A stretch of DNA of 64,000 bases. It comes from an uncultured Pseudomonadales bacterium. GTDB lineage: Bacteria; Patescibacteriota; Microgenomatia; UBA1400; PJMF01. Below are positions 3,772 through 60,299 of the stretch, one piece after another. Positions within the stretch are counted from its first letter, which is position 1; every line of letters starts with the position of its first letter. The position numbers and the translations under genes were made by a program. The notes beneath the pieces were generated by a model. It was given only the letters and a program-made list of their open reading frames with translations, ran no database searches and was not told the origin of the DNA. Location of the stretch: contig CAYWDM010000006.1 in the NCBI GenBank assembly GCA_964457085.1, positions 4,302 through 68,301 of the forward strand, written 5' to 3'.

Positions 3772-4386
3772 ATGTCCTATACCGCATATCAACCCACCGA
3801 AGAATTAAAAATTACTGATGGTCTGTATCGTACTAAATTCGACGGCTTATTTTATGTCACTTATCCTAGATTTGCAGACAATCGAGGTGTTTTTTCTGAT
3901 TTTTTCAAGATTCCTAAATTAAATCCCCTCATTGGTTTGAATTTTACTGCCAAACAGGTTAATTTTTCCTATTCGTATACTGGGGTGATTCGTGGCATGC
4001 ATGCTGAAGGTTGGAATAAAATGGTCACCATTTTAAATGGTAAAGCACTATGTGTGGAAGCAGATATTCGTCCTGAGTCTCCAACATTTGGTCAGACCGA
4101 GTATTTTGAGATTGGTTTTGACCCAGAAAGCAAACAGGGAGCTGGCCTGATTGTCAAAAAAGGCATTGCCAATTCTATCTGTGCACTCGAGGGACCAGTG
4201 AGTTATTTGTACGTAGTTGATTCGTTGTACGAAGATAGAGATATCGCTGGCGATCAAGCAGTTTCCATCTATGATCCAGACCTAAATATCTCCTGGCCAT
4301 TCACTCCAGAACAGACAATTATTTCAGATCGAGACAAACAAGCAGTAACTTTGCGCGAAAAATTTCCCCAAAAGTTTCAAAAATAG
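3772..4386 (+). CDS. dTDP-sugar 3,5-epimerase (RmlC)-like cupin
   Basis: DNRGVFSDFF, IRGMHAE, SPTFG and DPDLNISWP match the RmlC/cupin pattern. Start moved to MSYTAYQ (ATG 3772). No other rhamnose genes nearby. Confidence 0.55.
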   Translation: MSYTAYQPTEELKITDGLYRTKFDGLFYVTYPRFADNRGVFSDFFKIPKLNPLIGLNFTAKQVNFSYSYTGVIRGMHAEGWNKMVTILNGKALCVEADIRPESPTFGQTEYFEIGFDPESKQGAGLIVKKGIANSICALEGPVSYLYVVDSLYEDRDIAGDQAVSIYDPDLNISWPFTPEQTIISDRDKQAVTLREKFPQKFQK

Positions 4387-51249: not shown

Positions 51250-51575
51250 ATCTTCCGTTCAATTAATTTGGTATAAAAACAACTACGAGAGCCAGTGTGA
51301 CAAACTGCCACTCCCTGCAATTCAACTGTGACTAATACAGTATCGGCATCACAGTCTTGATACAACGAGAGAACTTTTAGCTGATTACCCGACTGTTCAC
51401 CCTTTAGCCAAAGTTTTTTTCGACTTCGACTCCAGAAATAAACAAAGCCAGTTTGCTGTGTTTTTTCGAGTGCCTGAGCGTTCATATATCCCAGCATCAA
51501 AACTTCACCAGTAGTTCCATCTTGAATAATGGCTGGCACCAATCCTGAATTTTTATTGAAATCAATTTTTTTCAT
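51246..51575 (-). CDS. hisI: phosphoribosyl-AMP cyclohydrolase
   Basis: GLVPAIIQD...[16 protein letters not shown]...CDADTVL...CHTG. Confidence 0.85.
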
Positions 51576-52332
51576 AGACGTTTCTATTTGGGATTTTTTT
51601 TAATTGCATATATTTTTTTAAATCAGAAATCGTCAACTCACCAAAGTGGAATAGTGAAGCAGCTAATGCACCGTCAGCGACTCCTTCTTCAAATACATCG
51701 GCAAAGTCTGTAATGCTTCCAGCACCTCCAGAAGCAATCACCGGGACAGTGACACTTTGAGAAATAATTCTAGTCAGCTCTAAATCAAATCCCTTCTTGG
51801 TGCCGTCAGCATCCATGCTAGTCAACAAAATCTCACCAGCTCCAAGTCCGACTCCTTCTTTTGCCCAGGATAGAGCGTTAAGCCCTGTTGCAGCAGTACC
51901 ACCATTAATCACTACCTCCCAACCAGTTTTATTTTTTTTAACATCGATCGCCAATACGATACATTGACTACCAAATACCCTTGCAGCTTCGGTAATGAGA
52001 CTGGGTTTTTTAACTGCTGCAGTATTGAGTGAAACCTTATCAGCACCAGCCAATAATACGGTTCTAATATCTTCAATTGAACTAATACCACCTCCGACTG
52101 TAAATGGAATAAAAATAGTTTCAGCAACTTTTTTAACCATCTCGATTATTGTTTTACGTCGATCATTAGTAGCGGTAATGTCTAGGAATACCAACTCGTC
52201 AGCACCTTGGTCATTGTAGAATTTTGCCAATTGCACCGGATCACCAGCATCCTGCAAATTCACAAAATTAACCCCTTTAACCACTCGGCCGTTAGCAATA
52301 TCAAGACAGGGAATAATTCGTTTAGTTAACAT
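51562..52332 (-). CDS. hisF: imidazole glycerol phosphate synthase cyclase subunit
   Basis: [15 protein letters not shown]...[10 protein letters not shown]. Confidence 0.9.
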
Positions 52333-53044
52333 TGTTGACCTCCTGAATTGAGATTTTGCCTTCTAATACTGCTTTGCCAATAATTACTCCTGCTACTTTG
52401 AGAACTGAGAGTGCAATGACATCTGCTTTTGAGGACACTCCACCAGCAACAATGAGTGGCACTGAAAGTAACGACTGTAACTTTTTAACCTCTTCAAAAT
52501 TGGGTTGAGTTAGTGTGCCGTCTCTACTCACATCAGTATAAATAAATGTTTTCACTCCCCATTTTTCTAGCTGTATAGCAGTTTCAAGTAAATCTTGATC
52601 ACTGTTTTCCAACCAACCACGTTTGGCTAATTTGCCATTTTTACTGTCGAGCGAAACAATAATCCTGTCACCGTATTTGTCTAGCATTTGTTTTATCAGT
52701 GATTCGTTCTCTAAAGCCACCGTGCCAATAATTACTTTTGTGTCTCCAATTTTTAAAAGCTTCTCGACACTAGCAAGAGACTGAATGCCGCCACCAACTT
52801 GAACAGGAATGGTAACCGCGGTAATGATTTTTTTTATGATGACTAGATTGATTGATCGACCAACTTTGGCACCATCAAGATCCACGATGTGTAGTGCTCT
52901 AGCTCCTGCAGTTTGCAAGCGTAGAGCCATTGCCACAGGATCTTGGCCATAGATTGTTTCCAAAGCATAATCACCTTGTTGTAAGCGGACACAATTGCCA
53001 GCTCTAATATCAATAGCGGGAATAACTAGCATAATAGCCTCCAA
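52322..53044 (-). CDS. hisA: ProFAR isomerase
   Basis: [15 protein letters not shown]...LHIVDLDGA. Confidence 0.85.
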
Positions 53045-53625
53045 AAGTTTTCTAATACCTGGAGACCTGCCTCACCACTTTTCTCTGGGTGAAACTGTAC
53101 TCCATAGATATTTTTTGACTCAATCACACTGCAAAAGTCTTGACCATAATTAGTTACGCCAGTAACGTTTTTGGTGTCAATCGGATTGCAGTAATATGAG
53201 TGTACAAAGTAAAAATACGAATTATTTGTAATACCCTGCAACAACTGCGAATTTAATGCATTGACTTGGTTCCAGCCGACTTGGGGCACCTTTAAATTAG
53301 TTTTCAATTTTTGAACCTCACCATTAATCAAATCGAGACAATTGACACCACCTTCTTCACTAAATGAAAAAAATAATTGCATCCCCAAACAAATTCCTAG
53401 TAATGGTTTACCACTAGCAACTTGCTCAGTTATCACAACATCAAGATTTCGCTGTCGCAGATTTTTCATACCTGCACCTGCGGCACCCACTCCTGGCAAA
53501 ATTAAACCTGTTGCCTGCTGAATATCGCCAGTTTGATTCGATATTTTGAAAGGAATGCTGAGTCGAGAAAGTGCATTTGCCACACTCGCCAAATTTCCCA
53601 ATCCATAATCAATAATTACTATCAT
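53026..53625 (-). CDS. hisH: imidazole glycerol phosphate synthase glutaminase subunit
   Basis: IVIIDYGLGNLASV, GICLGMQ catalytic Cys, HPEKS. Confidence 0.9.
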   Translation of the reverse strand: MIVIIDYGLGNLASVANALSRLSIPFKISNQTGDIQQATGLILPGVGAAGAGMKNLRQRNLDVVITEQVASGKPLLGICLGMQLFFSFSEEGGVNCLDLINGEVQKLKTNLKVPQVGWNQVNALNSQLLQGITNNSYFYFVHSYYCNPIDTKNVTGVTNYGQDFCSVIESKNIYGVQFHPEKSGEAGLQVLENFWRLLC

Positions 53626-54215
53626 AATGAACCCTTCGTCGATGGTATTTGTGTCAGTGCTCTCTGGTCATATTCACAAGCAGCTCGAATTGCTCGAGCC
53701 ATTGCTTTGAATATGCCTTCGATTTTGTGGTGATCATTGCGACCATTTTCAACCTTAATGAAAACATTGGCTTTGGCGTTTTGGGCAAAACCATCCCAAA
53801 AGTCGTAAACCAGCTCAGTGCTAAGATCTCCAACCTTGTCACGGTTAAAGTCACAATCGAGAGCGAAGGCATACCGTCCAGAAAAATCTATGGCTACCGT
53901 CACTAGTACCTCATCCATTGGCAATACAAAGAATCCATAACGATTAATGCCACGCTTCTCTCCAAGTGACTGCGCGAATGCCTGGCCTAAAACAATACCG
54001 ATATCTTCTACTGTGTGGTGCTCATCAATAAAAATATCTCCCTGAGCTACCAGTGCTAGATCAAATAAGCCGTGTTTGGCAAATAATTCCAGCATGTGTG
54101 ATAAAAAACCTACTGGCACAGTGATTTGTCGCTGTCCGGTTCCATCAACACTAAGTGATAACTCAATTTGAGTTTCAGTGGTAATGCGGGTAATTACGGC
54201 GGAACGTTTTTTCAT
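53622..54215 (-). CDS. hisB: imidazoleglycerol-phosphate dehydratase (monofunctional)
   Basis: RITTETQIELSL...DEHHTVEDIGI...AMARAIR. Confidence 0.9.
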   Translation of the reverse strand: MKKRSAVITRITTETQIELSLSVDGTGQRQITVPVGFLSHMLELFAKHGLFDLALVAQGDIFIDEHHTVEDIGIVLGQAFAQSLGEKRGINRYGFFVLPMDEVLVTVAIDFSGRYAFALDCDFNRDKVGDLSTELVYDFWDGFAQNAKANVFIKVENGRNDHHKIEGIFKAMARAIRAACEYDQRALTQIPSTKGSL

Positions 54216-56053
54216 AACAGGAGTCTTTCGATTTCGTTGGTGCCTGCAACTTCAAACTCAGCTGCACTACCAGTGCCGACAAAGATACATGGCATCTGAG
54301 CTGACTTCGCAGCCAATACATCATTAATACTGTCGCCAACATAGATTGGCCGATTACTATCAAGCAGTGCAGCAGCTTGTAATAATGGATCTGGAAATGG
54401 TTTTTCTCGCAAAGTGTCCTCTTTACCAACTACAAATTTTTCTTGAATTAGTGCCGGTGATATCTTTAGATTTCTCAGTGCAAACAATGCCTCAAACTTT
54501 GGTCTCCCCGTAGCAACTCCAACCTTGTATTTATTAGCAATCTTTTTCAGGACTGCTAAATCTATCAACAGTATTTCATTAGCAATCAGTCCCGATTGCT
54601 CACTAATTGGAGCTAGTCGTTGATATATCTCAAAAAATAACTCAGAGCCTAAATAAAAACTCTGAAAAATATCTTTTATTTTTTGGTACTCTGAACTATT
54701 TTTTATTTGATCACTAAGAGCTGTGATTTTTTTCTTAAATTGAGTACGATAGATTTTTTTTGAGAGTAATTGTATGAGTGCAAACGACAGATCCCAATCA
54801 TTATTGAATCCTGGAATCAACTTCATGGACTCAACATCTTCGGCGGCTATAACTGTGTGCAAACCATAATTATTTTGTAGCACGTACTCAACCGTTAATT
54901 TGATTGCCTGGCGATATGACTGCGAGACATCTATCAGTACACCATCCATATCAAAAATAACGCTATCTAACTTTGGTTTAGAATATTCCCTGAGTGCTGC
55001 CAACAACTTGTCATTCTGGCGACGAGTGCCGATACTGATGCGAATTGCACTGTAAGCTGTGTAGTAGCGAACCACAATTTTTCGCTTCTCCAGAATTTCC
55101 TGTAACTGCGAGAGTCGATCCATCACAATAAACAGCGAGTTTGCTGCTGATGGATACACCGTAAAGCAGGACAATTTTTCAAGTTCATTATTTAAACGAG
55201 TTCGCTCTGCAACAATTGTCGCCAGCATTTTTTCTCTCCAAGTGGTATCAGAGAGAGCAGCGATTCCTGCCTCATTTGCAGCCAAGTTAACATTGTATGG
55301 TGGTTTAATCTTAAACAGCTGCTGCACAAAAAACTCATTCATCACCCCATATCCCAATCGCAAACCTGCCAATCCCGCCCATTTACTCAGAGTTCGTAGC
55401 ACGATTAAGTTGGGATACTGCTCCAGTAGTGAGATTACACTCTTACCAGAAAACTCAAAATAGGCTTCGTCCACAATGACCAGCTTACCGGTTTTTAATA
55501 ACGTAATGATTTCTTCCTCGCCACTGACAGTCCCGGTAGGATTATTTGGCGAACAAATTACGATTGCCTTGGTACGAGCTGTGACTGCTTTTCTAATCCC
55601 TATCAGATCCAATGAAAAATCAGCATTTCTGGCAACCGCAACTACCACACCACGATTCAACTGTACCGACACACAGTACATGCCAAATGTTGGCGGACAG
55701 TTGATTACTTCGTCGCCATTATTCAGGATCAATCGGAATAGTAAATCCAACAGTTCGTCTGACCCTGAACCAACCATGATATTTTTAACAGCGGCACCAG
55801 TATATTCAGCCAGTGCAAAGCGTAACTGCATATATTCAGGATCAGGATAAAAATTATATTTTGGTTGTCCTCGTAGTGCTTTCTGCACTAATGGTGAGTA
55901 GCCAAATTGATTTTCACCCGCGTCAAGTTTAATAACATCTTCAGAATTTTGACCAAACTTCTCTGCCAAATCCCACAGCGATGCTACCGGCAGATAGGCC
56001 GACATCGCTGCGATATCCTTTCGGATCATATTTTGTATAGTATTTTTTTTCAT
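54212..56053 (-). CDS. hisC: histidinol-phosphate aminotransferase fused to a C-terminal HAD-family phosphatase
   Basis: N-terminal aminotransferase class I/II with PLP-Lys region LRTLSKWAGLAGLRLGY. C-terminal HAD motifs FDMDGVLID (I), VATGRP (II) and VGDSINDVLAAK (IV). Start set at MKKNTIQ. Confidence 0.8.
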   Translation of the reverse strand: MKKNTIQNMIRKDIAAMSAYLPVASLWDLAEKFGQNSEDVIKLDAGENQFGYSPLVQKALRGQPKYNFYPDPEYMQLRFALAEYTGAAVKNIMVGSGSDELLDLLFRLILNNGDEVINCPPTFGMYCVSVQLNRGVVVAVARNADFSLDLIGIRKAVTARTKAIVICSPNNPTGTVSGEEEIITLLKTGKLVIVDEAYFEFSGKSVISLLEQYPNLIVLRTLSKWAGLAGLRLGYGVMNEFFVQQLFKIKPPYNVNLAANEAGIAALSDTTWREKMLATIVAERTRLNNELEKLSCFTVYPSAANSLFIVMDRLSQLQEILEKRKIVVRYYTAYSAIRISIGTRRQNDKLLAALREYSKPKLDSVIFDMDGVLIDVSQSYRQAIKLTVEYVLQNNYGLHTVIAAEDVESMKLIPGFNNDWDLSFALIQLLSKKIYRTQFKKKITALSDQIKNSSEYQKIKDIFQSFYLGSELFFEIYQRLAPISEQSGLIANEILLIDLAVLKKIANKYKVGVATGRPKFEALFALRNLKISPALIQEKFVVGKEDTLREKPFPDPLLQAAALLDSNRPIYVGDSINDVLAAKSAQMPCIFVGTGSAAEFEVAGTNEIERLLL

Positions 56054-56060
56054 ATTTTTT

Positions 56061-57353
56061 TTAATTTCTAAATCGAATCTCGCAGGCAACTTTGTGAGCG
56101 GGTAGCTCCTCTATCTCAGCTAAGGTTTCGATGGTTTTTCGTAAATTATTTAGTCCTGTTTTGCTACAGCGCTGTACCTGCATCCATTTGCCATAACAAT
56201 CAACTCCTAGAGGTGGGTACATCTTAGCCATGCCCCCAGTTGGTAGTACGTGGTTGGCACCTGTTGCATAATCCCCTGCTGATTTGGCTGTCCAATTTCC
56301 TAAGAAAATTGAACCTGCATTTACAATCTCACTGACCACTGCTTCAGGATCTTTAGTCATGATCTCTAAGTGCTCAGGAGCGTATTCATTGGTAAAAGCA
56401 ATTGCTTCTTCCAGTGAATCAACTACAGCTACTAAACCAAACTTAACTAATGATTCAGTTAGACGCTCGGCAGTTGCCAACAGTGGCACTTGTTTCTCGA
56501 TTTCAGCAATTGTTTGCTCAGCAATCTCCAGCGAAGTAGTGACTAAAACACATGCTGAATCATTACCGTGTTCACCATCTGCCAAGAGATCGGCAGCAAT
56601 GAACGCTGGGTTAGCAGTCTCATCAGCGATTACAAATACTTCAGAAGGACCAGCTGGCATATCGATACTAATTGATTCAAGTGCCAGCATCTTTGCAGCA
56701 GTTACCGCAGCACCACCAGCACCAAAGATCTTAGAGACTTTTGGTACAGATTCTGTGCCATAGGTCATAGCTGCGATTGCCAGTGGTCCACCCAGTTTAA
56801 AAATCTCGGTCAATCCAATCATGTCAGCAGCCACCAATGTTGGTGCTGGAATCTGACCAGTGCCTCGTGCCGGTGAACAGAGCACAATCTGTGTACAACC
56901 AGCAATCTGTGCTGGAATCGCACTCATCAATACTGATGAAGGATAAATAGCTTTGCCACCAGGAATATATAATCCAACTTTCTCGATTGCTCGCCACTCA
57001 CGCCAAACTGCCACTCCAACTTCTGGTCGCACTACAGTATCCAGTTTGGTGGGTAACTGTGCGGAGTGCACGGCAGTAATATTGCGAATCATTTGACGAA
57101 TTGACTCAATAAAGTCTTGATTAACTTCTCGGTAAGCCTGATTAATCTCCTCAGAAGTAACTTTAATTGAAGTGAAATTCTGACCTGCAAAACGCTTGGC
57201 AGCATCAGCATATAGTGCTCTGTCGCCATCCTGTTTCACCGACTCCATGATTTGTTTCACTTGAGGCATGATTTGAGAATCATCGCCTGCACTGCGAGCC
57301 ATAATTCTTTGATAATCACTGGCCGATAAATCTTTAAGTTTAATAACTTGCAT
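56061..57353 (-). CDS. hisD: histidinol dehydrogenase
   Basis: Conserved HisD segments (CSPARGTGQ, GEHGNDS, DYATGANHVLPTGG). Confidence 0.9.
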   Translation of the reverse strand: MQVIKLKDLSASDYQRIMARSAGDDSQIMPQVKQIMESVKQDGDRALYADAAKRFAGQNFTSIKVTSEEINQAYREVNQDFIESIRQMIRNITAVHSAQLPTKLDTVVRPEVGVAVWREWRAIEKVGLYIPGGKAIYPSSVLMSAIPAQIAGCTQIVLCSPARGTGQIPAPTLVAADMIGLTEIFKLGGPLAIAAMTYGTESVPKVSKIFGAGGAAVTAAKMLALESISIDMPAGPSEVFVIADETANPAFIAADLLADGEHGNDSACVLVTTSLEIAEQTIAEIEKQVPLLATAERLTESLVKFGLVAVVDSLEEAIAFTNEYAPEHLEIMTKDPEAVVSEIVNAGSIFLGNWTAKSAGDYATGANHVLPTGGMAKMYPPLGVDCYGKWMQVQRCSKTGLNNLRKTIETLAEIEELPAHKVACEIRFRN

Positions 57354-57362
57354 ATAATTCCT

Positions 57363-58244
57363 TTACAAAATAATTTTTTCGATTGGTAAGACAATAATTC
57401 CAGTGGCACCAGCAGCTTTGAGTTTTTCAATGGTTTCCCAAAACACATCCTCTTTAATTACAGTTTGGATCGAGACCCAACCGTCCTGAGCTAGTGGTGA
57501 AACTGTCGGCGATTTAAGTCCGGGAGTAATTTTCTGCAAATTTGACAAAATATCTTCTGGAGCATTCATCATCACGTATTTATAGGTTTTGGCTGAAAGT
57601 ACGGCTTTGAAACGAACCAACAATCTTTTTATTAATCGCAGTTTGGCTGCATCCACCATGCTGGTGCCATTGGCAATACAAACCGCTTCACAGTCATAGA
57701 TTTTTGCCAGTTGTCGCAAATCATTAAGTGCCATAGTGCTGCCAGTAGCAGTGAGGTCAGCGATGGCGTCAGCAACTCCCAACATCGGTGCTATCTCCAC
57801 CGAACCGCTAATCTTGATTGTCTCCACCGACATGCCACTTTTCTTAAAAAAATTCTTGGTTGAGTTCGGGTAGGAAGTGGCAATCGTTTTTCCGTCTAAA
57901 TCTACTAATTCAACGACAGGCGATTCTTTGGGGACCGCCAATGTCAGAGCACAAAATCCATACCGCAGATTTAAAAGTTTCTTGACGTTTTTTGGTCGTT
58001 CTTCGTACAGTAAATTTTGACCCACAATACCCATATCCACACTACCAGAAGCTACATAATCGGGAATATCGTCGTCACGCATGTAGATAATTTCTAAAGG
58101 AAAATTGCGACAAGTAGAAAACAACTTAGATTTATAACTGGCAAATTCCAGTCCAGCACTTCGCAAAAAACTAATGGTTTCGTCAGTCAGACGACCACTT
58201 TTTTGAATAGCTAATTTTAGATTTTTTTGATTCATGTTTTGCAT
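57363..58244 (-). CDS. hisG: ATP phosphoribosyltransferase, long form with regulatory domain
   Basis: LKLAIQKSGRL...DIPDYVASGSVDMGIVG. About 290 aa, so it includes the C-terminal regulatory domain. Start at ATG 58244 or 58235; the ORF track uses TTG at 58256. Confidence 0.85.
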   Translation of the reverse strand: MQNMNQKNLKLAIQKSGRLTDETISFLRSAGLEFASYKSKLFSTCRNFPLEIIYMRDDDIPDYVASGSVDMGIVGQNLLYEERPKNVKKLLNLRYGFCALTLAVPKESPVVELVDLDGKTIATSYPNSTKNFFKKSGMSVETIKISGSVEIAPMLGVADAIADLTATGSTMALNDLRQLAKIYDCEAVCIANGTSMVDAAKLRLIKRLLVRFKAVLSAKTYKYVMMNAPEDILSNLQKITPGLKSPTVSPLAQDGWVSIQTVIKEDVFWETIEKLKAAGATGIIVLPIEKIIL

Positions 58245-58259
58245 AATTACTTTCAATTT

Positions 58260-58332
58260 GGGTGGCTGAGGGGAGTTGCACCCCCGGCCTTCTCCTCCAC
58301 AAGGAGATGCTCTACGGTTGAGCTACAGCCAC
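58260..58332 (-). tRNA. tRNA-His (anticodon GUG)-like gene with G-1 and C73, non-canonical D- and T-loops
   Basis: Manual fold of minus-strand GGTGGCTGTAGCTCAACCGTAGAGCATCTCCTTGTGGAGGAGAAGGCCGGGGGTGCAACTCCCCTCAGCCACC. Eight-bp acceptor including the His-specific G-1:C73 pair, anticodon loop UUGUGGA. D-loop AACCGUA lacks GG; T-loop is UGCAACU (G at position 55). Confidence 0.6.
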
Positions 58333-58354
58333 CATCTTTTAAACGAGTGGTTAA

Positions 58355-58422
58355 TAAAAAACCTCCCGTTCATTTCTCACCAACACCAGCAAAACCAGTG
58401 GTTGGTAAAAAAGGAACGAGAG
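58355..58422 (-). terminator. second leader hairpin: 10-bp stem (CCUCUCGUUC/GAACGGGAGG) with an internal nested hairpin, followed by U6
   Basis: Seen in the minus-strand transcript between the T-box-like terminator and the tRNA-His-like gene. Confidence 0.4.
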
Positions 58423-58426
58423 GCAA

Positions 58427-58610
58427 TAAAAAAGGACCTCCCGCGGTCCCATCCTTCATTCTCTGAGGTATTTCTCCTCAAAGCTCTCAGGCCGGCTCCG
58501 CACGTGCGACATCGGCTGTTGTATTTAACGGTTCAACTTCCGTAAGACATTTTGGCCTTCAGCTCATGGATCGTGACTCCACTCAAACGCTTTATTGGTA
58601 TTAACTTGTA
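58427..58610 (-). promoter_or_regulatory. candidate T-box riboswitch leader (His-specific) with terminator
   Basis: Minus-strand RNA has AAGGA-UGGGACCGCGG (58440-58450), matching the T-box core UGGNACCGCGG, with N=G complementary to the tRNA-His discriminator C73. Terminator GGACC-GCGGGA-GGUCC plus U6 at 58427-58448. CAC codon within GUCGCACGUGCG at 58503-58505. Confidence 0.45.
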
Positions 58611-58616
58611 TGCGAG

Positions 58617-58645
58617 TATTTTAATTGAGGAAGTAACAAATGTCA
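58617..58645 (-). promoter_or_regulatory. sigma-70 promoter of the his leader (TTGACA-17-TAAAAT)
   Basis: -35 at 58640-58645 and -10 at 58617-58622 on the minus strand, with 17-nt spacing. Confidence 0.6.
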
Positions 58646-58666
58646 ACATGTTAACGCGTTAACATG
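58645..58666. promoter_or_regulatory. perfect 22-bp palindrome ACATGTTAACGCGTTAACATGT abutting the -35 (candidate operator)
   Basis: Perfect inverted repeat between the yerC-like gene stop and the his promoter. Confidence 0.5.
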
Positions 58667-58701
58667 TATTTATAGAGGAATATTGATGAATTAATGTAAT
58701 A

Positions 58702-59004
58702 TTATGTGCGCTTCGAATCACCGTACAGTCTCTGCAAAATAATCGAATAGCCATGCCATGATTCTTTATACAGCCACTGAGCCACCCGAGTTACAGTGGT
58801 GGTGCTTGTACCGACTTTCTCTGCAATCTCTAAGTAAGAAAGTTTAGTTGACCACAATAGTTTAGCGATGTGAAAGCGACGAGAAAACTCTTCAATTTCT
58901 GCTGGAGTCAACAAATCACGAAGAAAGCCAGTGACTTCTTTCGGGCCACACAGTGTGGAGATGGCGGCGATGAGTTCTTTGTCAGATTTAGTGGGATAAG
59001 ACAT
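58702..59004 (-). CDS. yerC: YerC/YecD (TrpR-related) family DNA-binding protein
   Basis: 100 aa with LSYLEIAEKVGTSTTTVTRV HTH and overall TrpR_YerC pattern. Confidence 0.6.
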   Translation of the reverse strand: MSYPTKSDKELIAAISTLCGPKEVTGFLRDLLTPAEIEEFSRRFHIAKLLWSTKLSYLEIAEKVGTSTTTVTRVAQWLYKESWHGYSIILQRLYGDSKRT

Positions 59005-59020
59005 AGGTGTAGTTTAGCAC

Positions 59021-59506
59021 TCAGATAAAATCTGAATTAATTTTTTTTATGAAAGTAAAAAATGTTTTTAAAATTGCTATTTCTGGATCACTGGGATTTT
59101 TATTCGCTGTGACTATGGTGCTCACCTCAGTTTCACTAATCCAACGATAGGAATCAATTTCACTTTCCTGAATTTTAATATCATCTAATGGTGTGGTCGG
59201 AGTAGCTAAGTAAATATTCTCGATCACCGTTTTGCCATTATAAACATATGTAAAAGAGTCAAACAAATTACCAACCAAAATTTCAAGATTAAGTTCTTCT
59301 CTAATCTCTCTGACCAAACCAGCTTGATCAGTTTCACCTGATTCAATGTGTCCACCGGGCAATTCATAGACTCCGGGAAGAAATGAGGACTGCAATGATC
59401 GTTTGGTCATCAAACACTGATGTGTGTTAGCAACTTTTCGGTAGATCAAGGCACAAGCAGTAGGGATCATTTCCATATATATCCAGTTACTTACTAAACG
59501 CCACAT
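59021..59506 (-). CDS. NUDIX hydrolase
   Basis: Nudix box GGHIESGETDQAGLVREIREELNLEI. Confidence 0.8.
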   Translation of the reverse strand: MWRLVSNWIYMEMIPTACALIYRKVANTHQCLMTKRSLQSSFLPGVYELPGGHIESGETDQAGLVREIREELNLEILVGNLFDSFTYVYNGKTVIENIYLATPTTPLDDIKIQESEIDSYRWISETEVSTIVTANKNPSDPEIAILKTFFTFIKKINSDFI

Positions 59507-60299
59507 CCAGAATCATCATCACCACGAATCCTAACATGGCACCAATTGTAGAGAAATCACTCTCACCTTCTGTTTGTGATTCTGGAATGATTTGTTCTAT
59601 CGTGACGTAGATCATGGCACCTGCTGCAAATGCCAACGCATAGGGCAAAATCTCTCGCATATTGATGACCAGCAAGGCACCACAAACTGCAGCTATTGGT
59701 TCCACAATAGCGGAAGCTTGACCATACATAAAGCTCTGCCATTTACTTTTGCCTTCTCGACGAAATGGTGTTGAGACAGCAAACCCTTCTGGAAAGTTTT
59801 GGATACCAATGCCGATGGCTAAAGCGATAGCTCCAGCCAAGGTCGCACCTGGTATGCCTGCACCCACAGCTCCAAAAGCCACACCAACTGCCAAACCTTC
59901 TGGAATATTATGTAGCGTAATTGAAGTAAACAGCAAAATAGTCTTATGCCAACTAGTAGGAATTCCTTCTTTTTTTGCCAGAGGCATACCTAAGTGCAAG
60001 TGTGGCACTAGCTTATCTAGCAACCAAAGAAAAGCTCCACCCATAATAAAACCAATTGCCGGCGAAATCCAAGCTTGCTGACCTAACTCATGGCTGAGGC
60101 TGATTGCAGGTTGCAGTAGTGACCAAAAACTAGCGGCCAACATGATCCCTGCAGTAAATCCCAACAAGGCATTAAAAATCTTTTTATTTCCTGAGGGCAA
60201 AATAAAAATGCCGGCTGCACCCAAAGCCGTTAGACCCCAGGTAAAGATAGTGGCCAGCAAGGCCTGAAGAACTGGATTGAGTGTGGAGAAAAAATGCAT
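59487..60299 (-). CDS. ZIP-family metal transporter (second copy)
   Basis: HNIPEGLAVGVAFGAVGAG and eight TM helices. Confidence 0.7.
   Translation of the reverse strand: MHFFSTLNPVLQALLATIFTWGLTALGAAGIFILPSGNKKIFNALLGFTAGIMLAASFWSLLQPAISLSHELGQQAWISPAIGFIMGGAFLWLLDKLVPHLHLGMPLAKKEGIPTSWHKTILLFTSITLHNIPEGLAVGVAFGAVGAGIPGATLAGAIALAIGIGIQNFPEGFAVSTPFRREGKSKWQSFMYGQASAIVEPIAAVCGALLVINMREILPYALAFAAGAMIYVTIEQIIPESQTEGESDFSTIGAMLGFVVMMILDVAFSK

Follow-up and report, generated by a model that had tools for sequence, protein, structure and literature searches.

A predicted histidine T-box with an ultrashort Stem I and an intrinsic terminator precedes a tRNA-His gene and a his operon in a probable Patescibacteria genome

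Classical T-box riboswitches, such as those of Bacillus subtilis tyrS and glyQS and of the Lactococcus lactis his operon, read the anticodon of a tRNA with a specifier and its free 3′ end with a UGGN bulge, and they share a K-turn at the base of Stem I, a Stem IIA/B pseudoknot that includes the F-box, a Stem III and mutually exclusive antiterminator and terminator helices. The working rule of the field assigns a long Stem I platform to transcriptional T-boxes and an ultrashort Stem I to translational ones (PMC7583486, PMC11297988), and the ultrashort form without a distal platform has so far been described for translational actinobacterial T-boxes (PMC7583486, PMC11297988; PMC3896937 citing Vitreschak 2008). 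Here we describe a his operon leader on the minus strand of a 64,000-nucleotide (nt) stretch of contig CAYWDM010000006.1 (the window, to which all positions refer). This leader very probably contains a His-specific T-box that has an ultrashort Stem I and yet acts by termination, and we regard as likely the whole control scheme in which a HisR layer and this reduced T-box together gate a tRNA-His gene and the his genes.

Transcripts that join a tRNA to an mRNA are known from the thrU-tyrU-glyT-thrT-tufB operon of E. coli and from the tRNA punctuation of mitochondria. The window resembles them in having a tRNA upstream of a protein gene in one predicted transcript, with tRNA processing expected to set the 5′ end of the mRNA; it differs in that the riboswitch controlling the transcript would have this very tRNA as its cognate ligand, so that a feedback loop would arise. 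For the protein layer the closest described system is the regulon of HisR (YerC), a histidine repressor of the TrpR family (Ashniev et al. 2022, PMC9413887). In Firmicutes YerC is HisR, its operators are 20-bp palindromes of the form cacTTTA-N6-TAAAgtg, binding of the Ruminococcus gnavus protein to DNA in vitro is stimulated by histidine, and HisR and T-boxes serve separate operons or one replaces the other (PMC9413887); in the window, in contrast, the two occur together on one operon.

The T-box model of Rfam, RF00230, aligns over its full length to positions 58596-58409 with 44.3 bits (E 1.8e-8 for 651 nt, 1.7e-6 for the whole window on both strands), and no T-box at the gathering threshold of 93 bits is found in the window or in 20 related loci. 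This search had been proposed in a preliminary description of the locus; its E-value over the window is low and its score stays under the gathering threshold. The score is low because 75 Stem I positions of the model are replaced by 6 nt. The ~30 nt that separate Stem IIA/B from Stem III are aligned as an insertion. Retained in the alignment are the K-turn base of Stem I, Stem II, Stem IIA with the F-box CCGUUA, Stem III and the T-box sequence, with AAGGA-UGGGACC-GCGGGAGG ... CCUCUCGU-UCCUU occupying model positions 180-219. Since the score lies below the Rfam threshold, standard annotation misses the T-box. Three related His T-boxes with a long Stem I (loci L043, L091 and L107) also fall below the gathering score, so that the intended positive control failed. 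A covariance model (R1) that we built from 33 related leaders, the window's own included, gives a single match in the window (58594-58411) with 189 bits, a high score that is expected from this composition; over the window and 587 kb of related loci it finds no T-boxes beyond the His leaders already known. In terms of defining features, the leader has a specifier, a UGGN bulge, an antiterminator/terminator pair, a K-turn, a IIA/B pseudoknot and a Stem III; it falls short of the Rfam gathering score and has no long Stem I platform. The preliminary description had placed a His-specific T-box before the his operon; the type of element, its specificity and the his genes stand, while its specifier, its assignment of the terminator and membership in the Rfam family at threshold do not. 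The features are collected in Table 1.

Table 1. Predicted regulatory features and genes of the his region, as positions of the window
Feature	Position	Strand	Details and basis
hisR-like gene, 100 aa, YerC/YecD TrpR-related family	58702-59004	minus	Pfam Trp_repressor, E 9.4e-18
22-bp palindrome, candidate HisR operator	58646-58667		ACATGTTAACGCGTTAACATGT; 11+11, 100% complementary, spacer 0
Sigma-70-type promoter	58618-58646	minus	TTGACA 58646-58641, 17-nt spacer, TAAAAT 58623-58618
K-turn base and ultrashort Stem I	58556-58593	minus	AAAGCGUUUGA ... GAGCU; Stem I GUGGA/UCCAU 58566-58582; loop GUCACGA
Specifier CAC (His), followed by invariant G	58573-58575	minus	Stem I terminal loop
Stem II hairpin	58544-58559	minus	AAGGC/GUCUU, conserved A-rich loop; compensatory changes in 5/5 pairs
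Stem IIA, F-box and IIB pseudoknot	58518-58543	minus	ACGG/CCGU; F-box CCGUUA; GUUG with CAAC; covariation
Extra variable stem between IIA/B and Stem III	58491-58516	minus	8/11 pairs of the base covary; apex varies in sequence and length
Stem III	58461-58483	minus	CUUUGAGG/CCUCAGAG; compensatory changes in 8/8 pairs
Antiterminator	58411-58456	minus	A1 AAGGA/UCCUU; 7-nt bulge UGGGACC 58445-58451; A2 GCGGGAGG/CCUCUCGU
Hairpin 1 and U6	58428-58450	minus	GGGACC/GGUCCU; -10.2 kcal/mol; apical region of the antiterminator, sequesters the T-box bulge
Terminator 2	58356-58423	minus	hairpin CCUCUCGUUCC ... GGAACGGGAGG 58423-58362; U6 58361-58356
tRNA-His, anticodon GUG 58298-58300	58260-58333	minus	ARAGORN; Rfam tRNA, 62.8 bits
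his operon hisG-D-C-B-H-A-F	51562-58244	minus	Pfam, NCBIfam; hisG 57363-58244

Comparison with relatives carries the structural part of this assignment. Scanning species-representative genomes with HisG gave 13 loci with 60-76% HisG identity. Five of the closest hisG loci are metagenome-assembled genomes (MAGs) of the Candidate Phyla Radiation (CPR), assigned to Paceibacterota and to Woese-, Gottesman- and Roizmanbacteria, and for this reason the host is probably a member of the CPR/Patescibacteria rather than one of the Firmicutes. The other eight of the 13 are seven Third Party Annotation assemblies labelled 'uncultured Gammaproteobacteria', a label that we infer to be wrong, and one unclassified 'bacterium'. 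Seven of the 13 loci (L001-L005, L007 and L010) have a T-box-type leader, and the remaining six (L006, L008, L009 and L011-L013) have instead a short open reading frame (ORF) that contains His codons and has terminator hairpins behind it. Searching metagenomes for the 17-nt antiterminator core, a pattern that fixes UGGG in this set, added at least 120 loci; the combined loci hold at least 111 sites with a matching antiterminator 3′ strand, or at least 105 leaders after removal of duplicates. The counts out of 92, 99 and 54 given here refer to unique leaders, and those out of 26 to loci, among the matches listed. In 92 of 105 listed leaders a short hairpin with the loop (A/G)UCACG lies ~120-180 nt upstream of the T-box core.

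We aligned 33 compact, non-identical leaders with MAFFT, using no structure (alignment A1), and counted pairs for the structure read from the window. In this alignment 86.6% of cells are paired, compared with 35-48% after a shift of the 3′ partners by 1-3 columns, both sides are changed in 34 of 53 pairs, and 302 cells are compensatory, compared with 28-100 in the shifted controls; none of 500 shuffles reaches the observed values. The compensatory changes fall in the K-turn C-stem (AGC/GCU vs UCC/GGA), the 5-bp Stem I, Stem II, IIA, the IIB pseudoknot, the variable stem and Stem III. Both sides change in the C-stem and in four of the five Stem I pairs, and the IIB pseudoknot is rebuilt as UUUUU/AAAAA in L001 and appears as GCC/GGC in a comparison of L021 with L028. 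RNAalifold, run on the same alignment, independently predicts Stem I, Stem II, IIA, the variable stem and Stem III, and of the 34 pairs that it predicts 23 are compensated.

All aligned relatives have a Stem I of 5 bp with a terminal loop of 7-9 nt, and the motif GUCACG in that loop is invariant in 33 of 33 leaders. The CAC within it lies ~37 nt from the inferred transcription start site (TSS) and is complementary to the GUG anticodon of a tRNA encoded 240 nt downstream. UGGG and GUCACG are also present in all seven T-box leaders that were found through HisG homology alone. A distal AG-bulge/loop platform (interdigitated double T-loop motif) and a specifier-loop bulge are absent from the window leader; no Stem II S-turn was recognised in it. 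If the leader were a canonical class I T-box of the Firmicute style, it would have a long Stem I presenting a CAC near 58505 in a specifier-loop bulge; the RF00230 match is full-length, and CAC 58504-58506 stands at a TSS distance typical of class I specifiers. We give this reading next to no credence, as the Rfam alignment deletes the 75 Stem I positions, the region around 58505 is an insertion to the model that varies among relatives in sequence and length, the AG-bulge/distal-loop platform is absent and the conserved CAC is the one in the terminal loop of the ultrashort Stem I.

The CAC at 58506-58504 had been taken for the specifier, about 110 nt from the TSS. It lies in the self-complementary CGCACGUGCG, ~106 nt from the inferred TSS. 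This places it in the apex of the variable stem, where relatives carry GUCAUUAUUAUGGAG, GUCAGCUUUGCGGAG or long insertions, and it was rejected as a candidate. A Stem I that presents CAC does exist, as the preliminary description had supposed; it holds the other CAC.

Downstream of Stem III the T-box core reads AAGGA-UGGGACC-GCGG (58456-58441), and the AAGGA-UGGGACCGCGG antiterminator core noted earlier is indeed there, with AAGGA/UCCUU flanking the UGGG bulge. Over the 33 leaders the antiterminator helices A1 and A2 are paired in 99% and 95% of cells; they give no covariation signal because they are invariant. The 3′ strand of the antiterminator is at the same time the 5′ strand of terminator 2 (CCUCUCGUUCC), and the predicted energies are -38.3 kcal/mol for terminator 2 and -16.2 kcal/mol for the antiterminator. 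The terminator element is conserved in relatives as GAACGGGAGG-U5-7. It is terminator 2, and not the preceding hairpin 1, that competes with the antiterminator. Both hairpins had been recognised before, the first as a GC hairpin with U6 and the second as a further terminator-like hairpin; each is present, and the real competing terminator is the second.

An ultrashort Stem I with the specifier in its terminal loop is, according to PMC7583486 and to PMC3896937 as far as it reports Vitreschak 2008, a hallmark of translational T-boxes, and a sister lineage of the window leader (L022, L040 and others) carries a helix that sequesters a Shine-Dalgarno (SD) sequence. The leader could on these grounds be a translational class II element like that of actinobacterial ileS, hiding a ribosome-binding site. 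We consider this very unlikely: the antiterminator is followed by a -38 kcal/mol hairpin and U6, the switching helix contains no SD sequence, and hisG starts 112 nt past the U-run (58356 to 58244). The first gene downstream is a tRNA, which is untranslated, so control in the window would not be translational, and termination by the ultrashort T-box remains the reading that we follow.

Described as in PMC7583486 and PMC11297988, which summarise Sherwood, Grundy and Henkin 2015 and the structure of M. tuberculosis ileS, the ileS T-box shares with the window the ultrashort Stem I, the terminal-loop specifier, the reliance on Stem II and IIA/B and insertions atop A2; by the same descriptions the window differs in having a terminator and a tRNA gene instead of SD sequestration, in its specificity for His and not Ile, and in its phylum. 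Compared with classical T-boxes, among which the element of Lactococcus lactis shows that his operon control is shared as well, the window has a 5-bp Stem I with the codon in its terminal loop and neither a specifier-loop S-turn nor an AG-bulge/distal-loop platform on which the tRNA elbow could dock. It further has an additional variable stem that separates IIA/B from III, a hairpin with a U-run inside the antiterminator that sequesters the bulge, a tRNA gene in the predicted regulated unit, a sub-threshold Rfam score and a probable CPR host.

The sister lineage is an observation in its own right. In L022, L030, L033, L034, L040, L044, L090, L099, L133 and others an ultrashort His T-box with hairpin 1 and U6 is followed by the SD-sequestering helix UUCCUUGGG/CCUGAGGAG in place of terminator 2, and several near-identical copies per contig stand before hisG-hisE, M15 dipeptidase and SLOG/AstE-like genes.

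Hairpin 1 pairs the bulge sequence GGGACC with GGUCCU. A stable hairpin followed within 2 nt by at least five U residues occurs at its position in 85 of the 92 listed leaders with an ultrashort Stem I, and it is formed in either of two registers, GGGACC/GGUCC or GACCGC/GCGGUC. Five leaders fall outside the ultrashort class, one of them (L076) being a false positive, and none of these combines the hairpin with the U-run. Programmed pauses act as T-box checkpoints in glyQS (PMC13001445), and for hairpin 1 the case for a functional pause or early-termination checkpoint seems to us evenly balanced. The simpler possibility, that hairpin 1 and U6 have no function of their own and are the apical part of A2 with an incidental U-rich loop, deserves a serious if lesser hearing. 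Insertions atop A2 are frequent in translational T-boxes (PMC7583486), GUCUU pairs with AAGAC in some relatives and extends A2, and either the hairpin or the U-run is missing in L001, L023 and L068. What speaks against an incidental origin is that so many of the listed ultrashort leaders have kept a stable hairpin over the bulge with an immediate run of at least five U residues, that two different pairing registers arrive at the same arrangement and that the five other leaders, the false positive included, do not combine the two elements.

The leader was initially described as about 275 nt long. The coordinates given at that time, 58427-58666, stop before the real terminator, and the leader in fact ends at a tRNA-His gene that had been overlooked. 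This gene encodes both G-1 and C73 and does not encode CCA; it lies between terminator 2 and hisG, starting 24 nt past the U-run of the terminator and leaving a 15-nt spacer to hisG. On the minus strand within 57800-59200 no promoter-like site was found between terminator 2 and the tRNA. Of the 99 listed leaders with at least 330 nt of downstream sequence, 28 are followed by a tRNA no more than 600 nt away, and it is always tRNA-His(GUG). For terminator-type leaders a tRNA-His follows the terminator in 23 of 54, often 2 nt past the U-run, and the same placement is seen after the long-Stem-I T-box L043 and after the leader-peptide attenuators L008 and L009. The gene that follows the tRNA may be hisG, hisS (L105), an M20 peptidase (L080 and L125), an S51 peptidase (L074), an AstE/AspA-like hydrolase (L042), an isochorismatase-like gene (L021) or one for a tRNA_SAD protein (L043), and several have no Pfam match. 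In 11 of the 26 analysable loci that lead from a T-box to a tRNA-His (L028, L032, L049, L059, L064, L070, L075, L086, L095 and L126 among them), an ATG stands exactly 3 nt past C73 (C73-C-N-T-ATG), so that 3′ processing of the tRNA would leave an essentially leaderless mRNA.

On this evidence it is likely that tRNA-His is co-transcribed with the his genes under T-box control. Could the tRNA instead be an independent neighbour, with a promoter of its own or constitutive expression, whose position has no regulatory meaning? Genes for tRNAs are often scattered between operons, over half of the related leaders have none, and leakiness of the terminator could supply enough tRNA. We hold such independence to be improbable, given that most loci place the tRNA 2-24 nt from the U-run (24 nt in the window), that any promoter before it would drive hisG constitutively too and none was found, that the 28 listed leaders with a tRNA all have tRNA-His and none another tRNA, and that the placement recurs after the leader-peptide attenuators L008 and L009 and before unrelated genes.

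In L002 a degenerate tRNA-His-like sequence with an odd T-arm (3911-3982) lies between a T-box terminator and hisG; it scores 49 bits with Rfam and is not called by ARAGORN.

Upstream of the leader the near-consensus promoter TTGACA-17-TAAAAT of the preliminary description is present, matches the consensus at 11 of 12 positions and is the sole promoter-like site on the minus strand within 57800-59200. The TSS is predicted at ~58611, 7 nt past the -10, and the same -35/-10 arrangement is found in L001, L016 and L098. At the predicted transcript start, ACAAGTTAAT (58600-58611, minus strand) is conserved at the same position in these three loci and resembles an operator half-site (GTTAA). The perfect 22-bp palindrome reported at the -35 is likewise borne out, with half-arms ACATGTTAACG/CGTTAACATGT and an overlap of one base, the first of the -35.

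The gene just upstream, thought earlier to encode a YerC/TrpR-like protein, passes the NCBIfam model TIGR02531 (YerC/YecD) with 47.3 bits (cutoff 42.2) and fails the TrpR equivalog (32.8, cutoff 67.25). In the four closest loci that have this regulator upstream of a T-box (the window, L016, L098 and L001) ATGTTA-N6-TAACAT stands beside TTGACA. The relatives preserve the half-sites ATGTTA/TAACAT but differ in the 6 nt between them, which are no longer complementary (GCGTAT in L016, TCGTGT in L098), a pattern of a dimeric protein site and not of an RNA hairpin. In the 889 kb of related loci the motif, allowing at most one mismatch, occurs only where the regulator is encoded, apart from a single AT-rich match in L107, and it is absent from the promoters of T-box loci without the regulator gene. 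Its sites lie at his promoters, in L001 and L098 also before the regulator gene, and over the -10 in L011 and L013, where the gene is divergent. That the YerC-like protein binds the palindrome, as had been suggested, gains support from this co-occurrence.

Two lineage consensuses of HisR, cacTTTAnnnnnnTAAAgtg and TGTAnTArnnnnyTnTTACA (PMC9413887), were compared with the window site. Per half-site, catGTTA-acgcgt-TAACatg of the window agrees with the Firmicute consensus cacTTTAnnnnnnTAAAgtg, which comes from another phylum than the probable host, at 5 of 7 positions; the TTA-N6-TAA core, the spacing and the 20-bp palindromic layout are common to both. The window compares with the HisR regulon of PMC9413887 as follows: both have a YerC/YecD-family protein of ~100 aa encoded beside his genes and a palindrome of 20-22 bp with a TTA-N6-TAA core at the his promoter, and relatives of the window also share the probable autoregulatory sites, whereas the half-site is cATGTTA and not cacTTTA and the host phylum is absent from those listed there. 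We think it likely, from the sequence comparisons, that the palindrome is an operator of the HisR type. The contrary proposal is that it is an RNA hairpin ending the transcript of the upstream gene, or a site for another factor. It lies 34 nt past the stop codon of the regulator and differs from the published HisR consensus; as RNA it would be followed by no U-run, its half-sites persist in L016 and L098 where the centre has lost complementarity, and the motif recurs over the -10 (L011, L013) and before the regulator gene (L001, L098). This makes the contrary proposal a poor fit, and we judge it unlikely.

Control by the HisR-type operator and the T-box would then proceed in two layers. In the first, by homology and assuming a response to histidine, a HisR-type repressor would bind the palindrome and block initiation when free histidine is high. 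In the second, the structure of which comes from comparison, CAC would be read by the GUG anticodon of uncharged tRNA-His and UGGG by the free 3′ end of that tRNA, and this pairing would stabilise the antiterminator and let RNA polymerase pass the terminator at 58362-58423; charged tRNA could not pair so, and transcription would stop. Hairpin 1 would form from the bulge before the 3′ half of the antiterminator is made and might serve as an early checkpoint, by pausing or termination, that gives a slow-binding T-box without a platform time to capture a tRNA; it would open only with the tRNA 3′ end in the bulge. Read-through would transcribe the tRNA-His gene and then the his genes, which would place the synthesis of the sensed tRNA itself under T-box control, and tRNA processing would separate the leader from the mRNA. 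Tentatively, we also propose that a tRNA-His (possibly the only one) made by read-through of a His T-box or, in relatives, of a leader-peptide attenuator amounts to positive feedback on uncharged tRNA-His, that platform-less sensing occurs co-transcriptionally by way of the hairpin checkpoint and that the tRNA punctuates the transcript, with a leaderless mRNA as the result in many relatives; this extended model is possible but somewhat short of probable.

Several points weigh against this account. The score of 44.3 bits lies below the Rfam gathering threshold of 93. According to reviews, a T-box that acts on transcription as a rule requires the long Stem I platform (PMC7583486), and efficient co-transcriptional sensing by the ultrashort form is a prediction. 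The strands of the antiterminator and terminator are invariant and hence without evidence from covariation, and in the at least 120 loci of the metagenome scan UGGG was fixed by the search pattern. The preliminary description had argued that the variable position of the bulge is a G, as pairing with C73-CCA would require. The G is in the bulge and C73 is encoded in the tRNA gene, but C73 pairs with G-1 in mature bacterial tRNA-His, for which reason TBDB skips discriminator matching for His T-boxes (PMC7778990), and this weakens the argument. In the protein layer, the ATGTTA half-sites differ from the published Firmicute consensus cacTTTA, and the operator adjoins the -35 from upstream instead of lying over the -10, so that activation may take the place of repression. 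Finally, every step of the scheme is a prediction from nucleotide sequence, whether tRNA binding, termination or HisR binding, and so is the TSS.

In the literature searched, whose coverage was incomplete and gives a weak negative, we found no description of a T-box in CPR/Patescibacteria or of a T-box before a (cognate) tRNA gene. A large covarying family that pairs the ultrashort Stem I with strong intrinsic terminators calls into question the rule relating Stem I length to the mode of control, and the hairpin and U-tract over the bulge are a candidate for the compensating feature. The sensed tRNA is encoded within the unit that the riboswitch would control, an arrangement that recurs before many genes and after two kinds of histidine attenuator. 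T-box and HisR regulation would be extended to the CPR/Patescibacteria, some of which appear to retain a full and tightly regulated his pathway.

Ribosome-mediated his leader attenuators (RF00514 type; Firmicute variants in PMC9413887) have the same biological role as the T-box of the window, which differs from them in its predicted sensing by direct tRNA binding; the window leader has no His-rich ORF, though relatives have one. In L006, L008, L009 and L011-L013 a leader ORF with 2-4 His codons (MKTQNMSQLAHHHHTT* in L009, for example) and terminator hairpins lies ~100-250 nt upstream of hisG (at ~4001 in these loci, 389 in L012), and such leaders of CPR MAGs resemble his attenuators of the ribosome-mediated type. 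In several loci with such an ORF a HisR-like gene is divergently oriented, and the operator motif covers the promoter.

The His T-box regulon also reaches beyond the his genes, to M20, S51 and AstE/AspA-like peptidases, hisS and tRNA_SAD (AlaX-like) genes (L036, L042, L074, L080, L125, L105 and L043), with M15 in the SD lineage. The peptidases suggest histidine scavenging from peptides.

Within the his operon, the C-terminal part of a hisC fusion is a HAD-family hydrolase (TIGR01548-like; 54212-56089, minus strand), and the HAD domain may supply the histidinol-phosphate phosphatase step. The hisR-like gene is directly preceded on its own strand by genes for a ZIP-family metal transporter and a NUDIX hydrolase (59021-60299, minus), with which it may be co-transcribed; the same gene order is repeated in a Logan contig.

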